64,000 nucleotides of DNA from an uncultured Acidobacteriota bacterium (GCA_963793945.1 CAWCCE010000001.1:525716-589715); one strand, 5' to 3'. Positions 49,762 to 54,370 are shown, counted from the stretch's first letter. Program-made: numbers and translations. The notes: generated by a model not told the origin, from the letters alone.

Positions 49762-51243
49762 TTATCTGGGCAAAGGTTCTTTCATGTCCGCCAGCGCGTA
49801 TCCTACGACGGCCATTGCGGCCGCATTCTCGCGCAGTTCGCTCGGGACAATCTTGTCGAGGGTATCGGCGGCGCTGTGGTGATAGTTGAAGTACGTGCGG
49901 CCGTCCTGCCGAAGTCCCAGTGCGGGGACGCCCGCTTCGGACATCGATGAAATATCCGCCCCGGGGGGATAGCTGCTCGGCTGGAGAGCGGTGGCTCCGA
50001 AGCTTTCCAAAACATTCAACGCCGGACGAAGCAGATCGGCCGCGTTAGCCGACATTCGGATATCGAATCCGAGTGGGTGCGCGGCTCCAGAATCGCTTTC
50101 GATCGCGGCGACATGCTTGGGGAAATCACTCGAATGATCCTTCGTATAGGCCTGACTTCCCGCACCGCCGCTTTCCTCGTCTATCCATGCAATCACACGC
50201 AGCGTGCGCTTGGGATGAAGGTGGAGCTTCTGCAGAATCTCGGCCGACTCCATTGCGACCGCAACTCCGGCTGCGTCGTCGATGGCTCCGGTGCCGAGGT
50301 CCCAGGAGTCGAGATGTCCGGAAACAACGACGATCTGTTCGGGATGCTCGGTGCCTTTCAAGTCGGCGATGACGTTATAGCCGATCGCATCGGGAAACTT
50401 TTGCGGCGTCAGCGTAAGATGCATGCGGACTGTGCCTTGTGCTGCGAGGTGAGCGATGAGTTCCGCGTCCTCGGACGTAACGGCGCCAGCCGGGATCCCC
50501 GCTGGAACGCTAAACCCGGTATGCGGCAGACGGTAATCGGCGTTTTCCACGGACCGGACGAGACCGGCAACAGCGCCCAGATCCGCTGCGGCTTTGGGTC
50601 CAGCCGCCCGGTAGCGAACGGCTTCCCCGTAAGCGATGAAAGAAATGCCCGCCGCCGCCTTCTGCTTATCGAAGATTTCGTTAAACAAAACAATCTTGCC
50701 CGCGACATGTTCTCGTCCGAGTTTCTTCAACTCATCGAAATTGTTGACGACGACGACATCTGCGTTGAGTCCTTCGGCGGGTGTCGCGGTACTTCCGCCG
50801 AGAGCCGTGAGTACGATTTTCTGGCTTGTTCCGGGAACCTGTCCTGAATATTCCACAAGCTCCGCCGTTTCCGCGCCGCGCACCCAGTGCGGAACTTTCA
50901 CTTCTTCGAGTTGGACATCGAGCCCAAGCTGTCGGAGTTCGCTGGCGACATAGTCCACGGCGGCCTTGGCCTGGGGCGAGCCGCTGATGCGCGGTCCGAT
51001 GTTCTCCGTCAAATGCGCGACTTGATTGTAGGCGTAGTCGTCCGAGAGAGCCGCCGTCTTGATTTCCGTCAACTGGTCGAGCAGCTGAGCGGAATAATTT
51101 TCCTGCTGCGCCTGCGTCATCTGCGGAATACCGCCGAACGGGTTCGGCGCAGGGGCCGGAGGGTTTTGGGCAACTGCGACTGTTGAGAGTGCGGCTAACA
51201 GAATGGTGATTGGAAGTGTTGGGCGAAAGGGGACGCTTGGCAT
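49762..51243 (-). CDS. secreted M28-family peptidase with PA domain
   Basis: Signal peptide from ATG 51243. VVVSGHLDSWDLGTGAIDDAAGVAVAMESAEIL; YHHSAADT. Confidence 0.85.
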   Translation of the reverse strand: MPSVPFRPTLPITILLAALSTVAVAQNPPAPAPNPFGGIPQMTQAQQENYSAQLLDQLTEIKTAALSDDYAYNQVAHLTENIGPRISGSPQAKAAVDYVASELRQLGLDVQLEEVKVPHWVRGAETAELVEYSGQVPGTSQKIVLTALGGSTATPAEGLNADVVVVNNFDELKKLGREHVAGKIVLFNEIFDKQKAAAGISFIAYGEAVRYRAAGPKAAADLGAVAGLVRSVENADYRLPHTGFSVPAGIPAGAVTSEDAELIAHLAAQGTVRMHLTLTPQKFPDAIGYNVIADLKGTEHPEQIVVVSGHLDSWDLGTGAIDDAAGVAVAMESAEILQKLHLHPKRTLRVIAWIDEESGGAGSQAYTKDHSSDFPKHVAAIESDSGAAHPLGFDIRMSANAADLLRPALNVLESFGATALQPSSYPPGADISSMSEAGVPALGLRQDGRTYFNYHHSAADTLDKIVPSELRENAAAMAVVGYALADMKEPLPR

Positions 51244-51316
51244 GTCGGACGACAGTGTATCTGACCTGCTTAGGAAATGAGAACTGTGGGCCGGCAGTGA
51301 AACAGAAGAGCATTTA

Positions 51317-51389
51317 CCACGAAGGACACGAAGTGGCACAAAGGTGAGTCGGTGCTTTGTTCCTTCGTGATACTTCGTGTCCTTTGTGG
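51317..51389. repeat. word hairpin, CACGAAGG family, copy B
   Basis: CCACGAAGGACACGAAGTGGCACAAAGG, loop, CCTTCGTGATACTTCGTGTCCTTTGTGG, followed by the same TTGAT.T(G)TTTT tail as copy A. Confidence 0.75.
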
Positions 51390-51413
51390 TTGATGTTTTA
51401 TCTAATCTCAGCC

Positions 51414-51441
51414 CAAAAAAATGGCCCCATTGCTGGGGCCA
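51414..51441 (-). terminator. strong intrinsic terminator (minus strand)
   Basis: On the minus strand: UGGCCCC-loop-GGGGCCA followed by UUUUUUU. Confidence 0.7.
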
Positions 51442-51770
51442 CGTTTCAAGAGGCTACGATTGGTGGGCGATGTCAGGAAAGGCGATGCAAGATGCCGTTC
51501 CGAAAGCCAGAACGGCACTTCGGGAAGTGACGCGTAGAATCGAAGAGGATGAAGGTCATGGAGTGTGCGGCCTCTTTCTTACATACGACTGAAGCACTTG
51601 CCGCACCAAAATGTGGAAATCCTGTGATTACCGTCACGCCTTTACGTAAGTGTAATTAATTTATGCACTTATGGCGTGCTGAATAAGGCTGGGGCGAAGT
51701 TGATAGTACCGACAACCGGAGCCCTCAAGTGCAGAACAATGCATATTCAATGCAGCGCCATGCCAAGCGC

Positions 51771-51802
51771 AAAGTAAAAGCCCATGGCAGCTCGCCATGG
51801 GC
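51771..51802 (-). terminator. intrinsic terminator of the gvpL/F-like gene
   Basis: On the minus strand: GCCCAUGGC-GAGCU-GCCAUGGGC followed by UUUUACUUUG. Lies 21 nt after the stop at 51823. Confidence 0.7.
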
Positions 51803-51822
51803 CATTGCAAAAGCAAGGGAAT

Positions 51823-52569
51823 CTAGCTGTTGCCGGCTACCGTGCGAAGCTTGCCGGGCAGGAAGTGGTAGGGAGGCCATGGACCGCTGATGGCCACTTC
51901 GCAATTCTTAAGCTGCTTGGCTGCCGTGCTGTACCGATTCTGATACTTTTCCACGCTCTTGGAGTCGATCAGGTGGGCGATATCGATCAACATGCCCTCG
52001 GGCGCGACCTTCTTGCAGCTGACTTCTTCTTCCAATGGATTGAACAGCTTATGGACCTGGACCGAGAGAGCCCGAGCTTTCGTCTGACGCTCGCGTTCTC
52101 TCGACGCCTTCACTTTGAGCTTGGACAGATAATCGCCGCCAACGGTGTCGGGAAGTTCGATGTCGATCATCGCTTCGCGCAGGGAACCATCGCGGACGAC
52201 CAGCTTGATGTGCATTTCGGACTTGCCGCGCAGCTTCGCGACACTCAGGCCAAAAGCGCGCCGGTTGACCCGGACGGCCTGGCGAAGTGCGTCATCGCTA
52301 TCGAAGATTGTGCCGAATTTGAAGGGCAGGACGGTGGAATTGCGGAAGCAGTTGCTGACGACTCGCGCATGCTCAATCGCGGCTTTATGGTCGAGTTCGC
52401 CGGCTGTGTGGTCGTATTCGCTGACTATTACGGCGAATTCACCACTGGGATAGCTCAGAACAGCAGCTCCGTTGACCCCTTGAACTCCCTCAAGAAGAAA
52501 AGGACGTCGGGTGCGGGTGCCATTTGGGAGGGTTTGGTGCTCGGTAAGACAGTACGCGTACCACGCCAT
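51823..52569 (-). CDS. GvpL/GvpF-family protein (gas-vesicle accessory protein homologue), orphan
   Basis: 248 aa. Family hallmarks by eye: N-terminal aromatic start (AWYAYCL), AV+VS, H..V+......TVLPFKFGTIF, GK.E..+K+, coiled middle part, C-terminal ISGPWPPYHF. GGAGAG RBS. Confidence 0.72.
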   Translation of the reverse strand: MAWYAYCLTEHQTLPNGTRTRRPFLLEGVQGVNGAAVLSYPSGEFAVIVSEYDHTAGELDHKAAIEHARVVSNCFRNSTVLPFKFGTIFDSDDALRQAVRVNRRAFGLSVAKLRGKSEMHIKLVVRDGSLREAMIDIELPDTVGGDYLSKLKVKASRERERQTKARALSVQVHKLFNPLEEEVSCKKVAPEGMLIDIAHLIDSKSVEKYQNRYSTAAKQLKNCEVAISGPWPPYHFLPGKLRTVAGNS

Positions 52570-52717
52570 GTTGAACTCTCCGAACCGGGATGGAGACGGA
52601 CCAAGCCGTCTCTCACGTCGAGTTATTTCGCCAAAGCTTGTGAACTGCGAGTTTGGAAGTAAGGAACGGGCGGTACTGGGCTAACCGGAAGCGTTTACAG
52701 TCGCACTTCCTGTATGC

Positions 52718-52746
52718 ATCTTACTTTGGGCACCTTGTAAATGCAA
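52718..52746 (-). promoter_or_regulatory. candidate sigma70-like promoter for the gvpL/F-like gene
   Basis: On the minus strand: TTGCAT, 17 nt, TAAGAT, ~150 nt upstream of ATG 52569. Confidence 0.35.
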
Positions 52747-52777
52747 CTTTTTCTTGCAGTGGAGCATCGGCAGGTGT

Positions 52778-54370
52778 TTATTTGGCGATCGTTGCGTGGT
52801 TCGCGCGCTCCTGTTGGGCCAGGAGTACGACTCGCAGCATCTCGTCCCAGGGGGCGGGTTTGCCCGTCCATATCTCGAATTGGCGGGCCGCTTGATGCAC
52901 GAACATTTCGATCCCAGAAATGACTTGTGCTCCACGCTCCTTCGCCAGTTTCAGAAGCCGCGTTTCTGCCGGATCATAAACCATATCAAAGACATAGCGG
53001 GCATTGATCTCTTTGTCCTGAAGTGGCGTTTCGCGCGTATTTCCCATCCCAACCGGAGTGGCATTGATGATCACATCGAACGCCACCTTCTTCAGATCCG
53101 GACGCTTCATGAGTCGGGCGCGTGCCTGATGCGCCAGCTTTTTTGCGTGCGCTGCACTGCGATTCAGAATGTAGACTTCCGCGCCTCGTTCTTTGAGGCC
53201 GAACACAGCGGCGCGCGCTGCGCCTCCTGCTCCGATTACTAGAATCCTGGCACCCTCGATCGTGCTTAGGCGGCGTTCCAGCGGGCGAACCACTCCAGCT
53301 GTATCCGTATTGAAGCCGTAGAGTTTGCCATCCTGTGCGCGCACGACCGTGTTACAAGCGCCGACCTTGGTGGTGTGCGAGTCGGTGTTATCGAGGTGTG
53401 GCAGGATCGCTTCCTTGTACGGCATCGTCACGCTGATGCCATGAATCGGGATCTCTTTGACGCAGGTCAAGAGATCCTTCAGAGTCTTAGCGTGCAGCGC
53501 TAAGTAAACACCGTTAACGTTCTCGCGGCGGAACGCCGCGTTCATGATTGCCGGAGAAAGCGAGTGCGCGATCGGATCTCCAACGACGCCATAGACCTTG
53601 GTCGCGACGTCCACCTGATCGATGCGATATACGCTGCGCAATTCCTGCGCTGTGGCTTGCCCGGGAGCGGTCTCCTGTCCCGCGCCCGCCGAAGCGAAGG
53701 TAAACAGGCTCCCAGCGCGAACGCCCAAGACGCGACTGATGATTCCTTGCTCCCCCATGCACATGCCGACCAGGGAATGCCGGTCGCCTTCGCGCGACAG
53801 GAATTTGATCATGGTCACGTTGTCCGCGAGCGTCGTCGCTGTGCTGACGACTTTGTAATAGTCTGCCGGATACGCGGCCATTTTTTCGAGAGCCTCGTCC
53901 AATTTCTTGGTCGCCCGAAAATCGTGGAACGAAAGGATCAAGCCGGCGCGGGAACGAAGCTTCTGCAATTGAGCAGGCTTACACTTGCTGGCGGTTTGAA
54001 GCTCCACGTCTACTAACTGGCAGCCTGCAGCGATTGCTTTCCCCAGAATGTCGAGTTGCGATGCGATGGAGCCGCGGAACTTGCCTCCATTGGAGGCCCG
54101 GCGGCAAGTGGCAATTACTACCGTACCGGGATAGCTTTCAATGAATCGCTTAACGCGAGGAAGCGCCAGTCCCGGCTTGGCGAGGTAGTCTAACCTGAAC
54201 TCTAGGAAAGAGTTATCCCGGGTCAGTCCTTCGGCCTTTTCGACCATTTCGTTCGCGTCAGCACCAATAACGGCAACGCAAACTCGCGGCAACCGCAAGG
54301 GCAGCAGGCGTGGTGCGAGAGGGGTGGCCGAAATCATCGTTCTCAGTTGTGTACCCGGTTCAACGTTCAT
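52778..54370 (-). CDS. bifunctional 3-dehydroquinate dehydratase (type I) / shikimate 5-dehydrogenase fusion
   Basis: The N-terminal half has AroD-like motifs (EFRLDYL, IATCR...GG.F.G, VDVEL, ILSFHDF). The C-terminal half is AroE-like (VYGVVGDPIAHSLSP..MN.AF, SVTMPYKE, NT, GFNTD, VIGAGGAARA). Confidence 0.9.
   Translation of the reverse strand: MNVEPGTQLRTMISATPLAPRLLPLRLPRVCVAVIGADANEMVEKAEGLTRDNSFLEFRLDYLAKPGLALPRVKRFIESYPGTVVIATCRRASNGGKFRGSIASQLDILGKAIAAGCQLVDVELQTASKCKPAQLQKLRSRAGLILSFHDFRATKKLDEALEKMAAYPADYYKVVSTATTLADNVTMIKFLSREGDRHSLVGMCMGEQGIISRVLGVRAGSLFTFASAGAGQETAPGQATAQELRSVYRIDQVDVATKVYGVVGDPIAHSLSPAIMNAAFRRENVNGVYLALHAKTLKDLLTCVKEIPIHGISVTMPYKEAILPHLDNTDSHTTKVGACNTVVRAQDGKLYGFNTDTAGVVRPLERRLSTIEGARILVIGAGGAARAAVFGLKERGAEVYILNRSAAHAKKLAHQARARLMKRPDLKKVAFDVIINATPVGMGNTRETPLQDKEINARYVFDMVYDPAETRLLKLAKERGAQVISGIEMFVHQAARQFEIWTGKPAPWDEMLRVVLLAQQERANHATIAK

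Follow-up and report, generated by a model that had tools for sequence, protein, structure and literature searches.

A solitary GvpL/GvpF-family gene is a near-universal core gene of the Acidobacteriaceae and very probably acts independently of gas vesicles

To our knowledge, GvpF and GvpL proteins are understood only as assembly factors of gas vesicles. GvpF is described as the primary binding partner, chaperone-like in character, of the hydrophobic GvpA helix, and GvpL as the scaffold of the nucleation complex for other accessory proteins; GvpF/L structures gave no mechanism, and the canonical molecular activity is unsettled (PMC11445434). The window analyzed here, a stretch of 64,000 nt from the genome of an uncultured Acidobacteriota bacterium, carries a single gene of this family (hereafter referred to as the orphan), for which a preliminary description of the same DNA had offered two readings: a role of the family outside gas-vesicle assembly, or a detached paralog of a distant gvp cluster. 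The features of the locus are collected in Table 1.

Table 1. Features at and around the orphan locus, in coordinates of the 64,000-nt window.
Feature	Position	Strand	Basis or remark
CDS of the orphan GvpL/GvpF-family protein, 248 aa	51823..52569	-	Pfam; fold; ATG common to 21 orthologs; dN/dS 0.018
Predicted -35-like hexamer, TTGCAT	52741..52746	-	read in the sequence; genus alignment; TTGC[ACT][ATG] in 19/21 orthologs
Predicted -10-like hexamer, TAAGAT, 17-nt spacer	52718..52723	-	sequence; genus alignment; cross-genus pattern
5' stem-loop of the leader, GGAAGUG / CGCUUCC, 7 bp, 10-nt loop	52687..52710	-	begins near the predicted transcript start (about +1); RNAalifold
Leader hairpin, GAGACGG-cuuggu-CCGUCUC	52593..52612	-	11 nt 5' of the Shine-Dalgarno sequence
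Shine-Dalgarno sequence, GGAGAG	52576..52581	-	6 nt 5' of the ATG; sequence
Intrinsic-terminator-like hairpin, 11 pairs (7 G-C), T-rich tail UUUACUUUG	51779..51803	-	
aroDE	52778-54370	-	
M28 peptidase	49762-51339		
Conserved block 3' of the orphan terminator	51420-51600		
Terminator-like hairpin at the conserved block	51442-51421	-	
Antisense ORF, 292 aa	51784-52662	+	shadow ORF

The product of the orphan reading frame matches the Pfam profile GvpL_GvpF (PF06386) over positions 1-244 of 245 (E 3.6e-46; 158.6 bits, against a gathering score of 23.6 bits), and the motifs MAWYAYC, TVLPFKFGTIF and GPWPPYHF can be read in it. Both the family assignment made in the preliminary description and the landmarks it named (an aromatic N-terminal strand, TVLPFKFGTIF and GPWPPYHF) are thereby borne out, and all motifs conserved family-wide in GvpL/GvpF (LPFRFGT, RGKxE, GPWPPYHF) are retained. 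The best NCBIfam match is the GvpL equivalog NF045778, which aligns over residues 4-238 with 43.4 bits (cut-off 200); the cyanobacterial GvpF equivalog NF052351 yields 24.7 bits (cut-off 350). With both scores far under their cut-offs, the orphan falls within the superfamily but into neither characterized type. Assignment to the GvpF or the GvpL paralog was attempted and given up in view of these scores and of the unresolved deep branches (32/60) of the tree presented below.

A first AlphaFold model, based on an alignment of close homologs only, was mediocre (pLDDT 64.8), and a second (AF2), with the sister clade described below added to the alignment, reached a pLDDT of 84.5 and a pTM of 0.78. 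A Foldseek search of the PDB with the AF2 model returned the GvpF crystal structures 4QSG (E 6.8e-13, TM 0.69/0.70) and 6L5D (E about 2e-11, TM 0.67-0.70) as the only significant matches, all others having E >= 2e-3 and reflecting generic ferredoxin-like similarity. As modeled, the orphan is a protein of the two-domain GvpF fold. Across approximately 20 genera (21 orthologs) the ATG start and the N-terminus MAWYAYC are fixed and 58 positions are invariant, C7, C185 and C223 among them. Variability is greatest in the tails of the protein, which are His-rich in one subclade of the family clade. The opposite strand carries an antisense open reading frame (Table 1) that exceeds the real gene in length and would be chosen by naive longest-ORF calling; homology and codon-level constraint all lie on the minus strand, and this frame was discarded as a shadow ORF.

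The host genome, that of a Ca. Sulfotelmatobacter from peat soil (6.11 Mb in 25 contigs, 97.65% complete), was searched genome-wide with profiles in six frames and found to contain exactly one GvpL_GvpF locus. The Gas_vesicle profile (PF00741), which covers GvpA/J/M/S, had no match in this 97.65%-complete genome even at E <= 1, and the best genome matches to GvpK (13.4 bits; cut-off 25), GvpG (19.7 bits; cut-off 30.6) and GvpN (24.1 bits; cut-off 266.8) are noise of a type also found in control genomes. The statement in the preliminary description that gvpA/J/M, N, G and K are missing from the 64 kb of the window can hence be extended, by profile search, to the whole genome. The 16 other sampled genomes of the genus, most of them 98-100% complete, likewise had no Gas_vesicle match (0/16), and the orphan does not lie in a gvp cluster, the same non-gvp locus recurring in 20 other genera.

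Within the genus, an ortholog is present in 24/24 sampled genomes, at 87-99% identity. An order-level draw comprised 201 genomes, 172 of which belong to the family that holds Ca. Sulfotelmatobacter and the cultured Acidobacteriaceae. A GvpL_GvpF match was obtained in 171 of these 172, most with exactly one, and the 28 sister-family genomes of this draw gave none (0/28). The 15/172 family genomes that carry Gas_vesicle genes are exactly those with two to four GvpL_GvpF matches. Cluster-encoded GvpF/L adjoins the shell genes in all 15, and the orphan sits at another locus in the five checked (5/5); orphan and cluster lie on separate contigs in G083 (C4 vs C29), G054 (C3 vs C2) and G060 (C13 vs C26). 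The three clusters examined (L143-L145) hold three GvpL/F genes each. One of them, L143 (G144:C1:2836000-2854000), is a true gvp cluster with GvpG, three GvpL_GvpF, three Gas_vesicle and GvpK genes, and embeds a PAS histidine kinase (sensor kinase) and a response regulator between its gvp genes.

These distributions bear directly on the notion that the orphan is a detached paralog that provides GvpF/L function for a gvp cluster at another genomic site, a notion that draws on GvpF/L being otherwise known only from gvp clusters and on the approximately 2% of the genome that is unassembled. Against it, the genome lacks Gas_vesicle, GvpK, GvpG and GvpN, none of the 16 other genus genomes has Gas_vesicle, and cluster-bearing relatives carry GvpL/F genes of their own within the cluster in addition to an orphan at a different locus. 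This second reading of the preliminary description is thus refuted, and we give it next to no credence.

A profile of the orphan clade built from the 21 orthologs delimits the gene further. In a phylum-wide draw, the host genome and 22/22 family genomes score 400-458 bits, and the best match in the remaining 278 Acidobacteriota genomes reaches 72.5 bits, so that the orphan constitutes a sharply bounded orthologous group. Cultured strains with an ortholog include Acidobacterium sp. S8, Paracidobacterium acidisoli, Pseudacidobacterium ailaaui and Acidipila rosea. A tblastn search of the orphan against plasmids and phages gave no match and PADLOC returned nothing, and a defense or mobile origin was accordingly dismissed. 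Two family genomes depart from the pattern. G188 is the only one without a GvpL_GvpF match, and the complete genome G074 carries a copy with a single frameshift near residue 131, in a variable linker (L154, G074:C1:2669500-2672500, ~1560-1565), both halves of which are 80-85% identical to an ortholog from the same genus; the frameshift is either a sequencing or assembly error or a very recent lesion. In view of these two genomes, the gene may be dispensable in some backgrounds, or the exceptions may be assembly errors. The orphan is retained intact in 170/172 family genomes, a count drawn from related and therefore non-independent genomes; it is a core gene of the family, nearly universal and present as a single copy.

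An exhaustive search of representatives revealed a gap in identity between the orphan group (at least 48%) and all remaining sequences (at most 39%), and recovered seven full-length proteins at 25-39% identity that have the same YAYC...GPWPPYHF frame. The preliminary description had suggested a phylogeny of orphan versus cluster-encoded GvpF/L. In a maximum-likelihood tree of 58 sequences, the orphans form their own monophyletic clade (support 96/93), the seven proteins form a second orphan clade that is sister to it (100/99), and three clades of Acidobacteriota cluster-encoded paralogs stand apart, with branches much longer than those of the orphans. The orphan clade is a distinct and vertically inherited clade within the GvpL/GvpF family.

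Three other Terriglobia families harbor the sister clade (12/14, 4/4 and 6/7 genomes; 283-377 bits). Three of its members, located on long contigs, are solitary among unrelated housekeeping genes, with no gvp neighbors: one has dapB, asd and EPSP synthase nearby, another tig-clpP-clpX-lon, RNase H and a SurA-like protein, and the third Uma2 and a short-chain dehydrogenase. Arg-rich tails follow GPWPPYHFLP in this clade (L148-L152; P0175, P0176, P0181, P0249), as in ...RLPLRARAVRV. The cysteines C7, C185 and C223, which are invariant in the family clade, suggested a possible metal site; conservation of C185 and C223 is incomplete in the sister clade.

The orphan also appears to be equipped for its own expression. 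The TTGCAT-17-TAAGAT arrangement named as the promoter in the preliminary description fits the sigma-70 (E. coli) consensus at 7/12 positions, which is why a consensus scanner left the hexamers uncalled. The hexamers are nevertheless conserved in the genus, and the pattern TTGCNN-N16-18-TANNAT (with TTGC[ACT][ATG]) recurs 112-203 nt 5' of the ATG in 19/21 orthologs representing some 20 genera, compared with 0.2 on average for shuffled sequences, a contrast somewhat inflated because the pattern was written after the sequences had been seen. This conservation shows a predicted sigma-70-like promoter belonging to the orphan. The predicted leader, which would start near 52711, spans approximately 142 nt, close to the ~150 nt previously proposed, and contains the GAGACGG/CCGTCTC hairpin already described together with a second element absent from that description, the 5' stem-loop, which is the better supported of the two. 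The 5' stem-loop shows compensatory changes in 5/6 consensus pairs tested, with 94.7% of cells paired vs 39-54% with a slid partner, and 0/500 shuffles reach the observed values. Support for the GAGACGG hairpin is modest (84% of cells paired, 5/7 pairs double-changed, 2-4/500 shuffles as high), and across genera the -70 to -8 region does not fold with lower energy than its shuffles (mean z -0.27), so that what speaks for this hairpin is its modest covariation within the genus.

At the Shine-Dalgarno site, the genus and the genera nearest to it show GGTTCGGAGAG with little or no variation. A further candidate leader structure, a long-range pairing of the conserved leader box GUACCGCCC with the start-codon region proposed by RNAalifold, was rejected: its 3' side never varies, and leader-to-start complementarity in 24 loci was no better than with shuffled leaders (mean z -0.04). 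An Rfam scan of positions 51300-52900 at E <= 1 returned nothing. The terminator claimed earlier corresponds to the 11-pair hairpin of Table 1. No terminator was found between the aroDE stop (52778) and the orphan promoter, and some read-through from aroDE is consequently possible. The orphan transcript is likely monocistronic; the promoter and terminator signals uphold this part of the preliminary description, and the possible read-through qualifies it.

The block 3' of the orphan terminator (Table 1) is conserved in the genus and has a counterpart in the equivalent position beside the ortholog in three other genera (L122, L125, L126), at 66-72% identity. Besides a terminator-like hairpin, it contains a 28-codon minus-strand ORF with a Shine-Dalgarno-like AAAGAGG, and part of a 71-codon plus-strand ORF that has no Pfam match. 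Substitution periodicity in the block is weak (211/158/126), and it could be a small gene or a small RNA.

Selective constraint was estimated by comparing genes of the window with the loci of the genus. For the orphan (67 loci), median amino acid identity is 97.2%, with dN 0.022, dS 1.10 and dN/dS 0.018; for aroDE (53 loci) the corresponding values are 87.1%, 0.081, 1.84 and 0.045, and for the M28 peptidase of Table 1 (17 loci) 76.6%, 0.16, 1.93 and 0.078. Since dS is near saturation these ratios are rough, but the ranking of orphan below aroDE below M28 peptidase is clear. The orphan is under very strong purifying selection, and its protein is better conserved than that of the adjacent aroDE. 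Its dS is clearly below that of both neighbors; a codon bias caused by high expression may account for this, as may constraint at the mRNA level.

Constraint of this order is difficult to reconcile with a functionless relic of a lost ancestral gas-vesicle cluster. The patchy occurrence of gvp clusters in the family (15/172) means that its ancestor may have had one, but a relic would not be expected to show a dN/dS of 0.018 at a dS of ~1.1 and to outdo aroDE in protein conservation, to be intact in 170/172 genomes, to keep its start codon, promoter and leader, or to form a clade separate from the cluster copies instead of being nested among them. We consider this explanation refuted as well, and scarcely worth entertaining.

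Immediately around the orphan lie aroDE (a bifunctional DHquinase_I and shikimate dehydrogenase gene), which precedes it in the same orientation, as well as two M28 peptidases and DksA, in agreement with the aroDE and M28 peptidase neighbors given in the preliminary description. Synteny across Acidobacteriota, a further comparison it had suggested, shows that this non-gvp neighborhood recurs: 12/20 genera-spanning loci, some of them in genomes with a gvp cluster elsewhere, have aroDE upstream in the same orientation, and pgsA (phospholipid synthesis) is convergent and downstream in 10/20. The distance from aroDE to the orphan varies between ~0.3 and ~5 kb in these loci, and the recurrence of aroDE and pgsA at variable distances fits vertical inheritance better than an operon. 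No operon partner or conserved functional neighbor was found in the 20 loci or in the sister-clade contexts. Guilt by association was likewise abandoned as an approach, because neighbors vary by subclade, gaps and orientation are variable, and the sister-clade contexts are mutually unrelated.

The same neighborhoods bear on whether the orphan might be a small-molecule sensor, its two ferredoxin-like half-domains acting as tandem ACT/PII-type ligand modules, possibly in amino-acid biosynthesis. After GvpF, the weak structural matches of the model are PII/GlnK, NikR C-terminal domains and the tandem ACT-like 2nyi and 1u8s; aroDE adjoins the gene here, and dapB, asd and EPSP synthase lie near one sister-clade member. 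These matches, however, have E >= 2e-3 and a TM of ~0.2 over the query, amounting to generic ferredoxin-like similarity; the other sister-clade contexts (tig-clpPX-lon, RNase H and SurA-like; Uma2 and short-chain dehydrogenase) are unrelated, and the presence of aroDE in only 12/20 loci, at such variable gaps, looks like a conserved chromosomal neighborhood. A sensor function is therefore an improbable reading of the gene.

A core gene under strong constraint, in a genome devoid of gvp genes, argues for a function independent of gas vesicles, and we regard such independence as very probable. The first reading of the preliminary description, a role outside gas-vesicle assembly, accordingly gains support from core-gene status, purifying selection and the separate clade. 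What this role might be can be put forward only tentatively. By analogy with the described proteins, the GvpF fold may have a second role in Terriglobia, in which it would chaperone or help to assemble a client other than a Gvp protein, possibly an unseen protein assembly. The orphan would be a cytosolic two-domain GvpF-fold protein whose conserved motifs might serve to hold a hydrophobic or amphipathic segment of this client or to deliver it, binding to such a segment being what the retention of the family-wide motifs, together with the roles of GvpF and GvpL, would lead one to expect. Since no partner, operon mate or conserved functional neighbor was found, this mechanism is drawn from analogy. 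Taken together, the explanation that joins gas-vesicle independence, in which our confidence is high, to a specific mechanism, in which it is low, is one that we moderately favor.

A variant of such an assembly role would make the orphan a factor or nucleator of an unrecognized protein-bounded or membrane-associated structure of Terriglobia, with partners that bear no detectable similarity to GvpA. The description of GvpL as a nucleation-complex scaffold (PMC11445434), the retention of all family-wide motifs and the convergent pgsA neighbor in 10/20 loci are compatible with this scenario. It is made doubtful by the lack of a conserved small hydrophobic gene adjacent to the orphan, by the failure of PF00741 to match anywhere in the genome even at E <= 1, and by the literature searched, in which no such structure is reported for the family; we rate it about as unlikely as the sensor and below the chaperone-like role for a non-Gvp client.

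A full-text literature search found no paper on an orphan GvpF/L in Acidobacteriota, and the gene is not mentioned in the supplements of two acidobacterial omics studies. Public records label the orthologs either 'GvpL/GvpF family gas vesicle protein' or 'hypothetical', and the former label is, in these genomes, not evidence of buoyancy. The Acidobacteriaceae are dominant, abundant and poorly understood bacteria of soil and peat. Near-exceptionless retention of the orphan, under tighter constraint than a shikimate-pathway enzyme and in hundreds of genomes unable to make gas vesicles, indicates that the fold does something else in these organisms, and the partner of the orphan could reveal a core process of the family. 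Should a non-Gvp client exist, bacteria that rank among the most abundant in soil would have it as a core trait. The orphan could also make the molecular action of a GvpF-type protein accessible in a less complex setting, from which ten other Gvp proteins are absent.

Among known systems, the cyanobacterial GvpF proteins of Microcystis aeruginosa (4QSG) and Anabaena sp. PCC 7120 (6L5D) share with the orphan the Pfam family, the modeled fold over the whole length (TM 0.67-0.70), a similar size (242-253 aa vs 248 aa) and common motifs near LPxRFG and GPWPPY. Identity in the structural alignment is 17-18%, and sequence-profile matches are weak (E 7e-6 and 1e-3) and confined to the N-terminal half. 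Unlike cyanobacterial GvpF, the orphan lies outside a gvp cluster, in a host genome without a GvpA to bind. GvpL (NF045778) is of the same Pfam family, but its partners GvpJ/M/S, GvpK and GvpG are missing from the host genome. The cluster-encoded GvpL/GvpF of gas-vesicle-positive Acidobacteriaceae share both protein family and host family with the orphan, yet they fall in separate clades on much longer branches, score 30-60 bits on the orphan profile where orphans score 400-458, and sit on other contigs or loci. The sister orphan clade (e.g. P0414, P0477, P0249) differs from the orphan in its chromosomal neighborhoods, its Arg-rich C-terminal tails and the incomplete conservation of C185 and C223. 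At 25-37% identity, it resembles the orphan in length and in the YAYC...GPWPPYHF frame, and its members are likewise stand-alone genes, with upstream gaps of 170-360 nt, that are near-universal in their own families.
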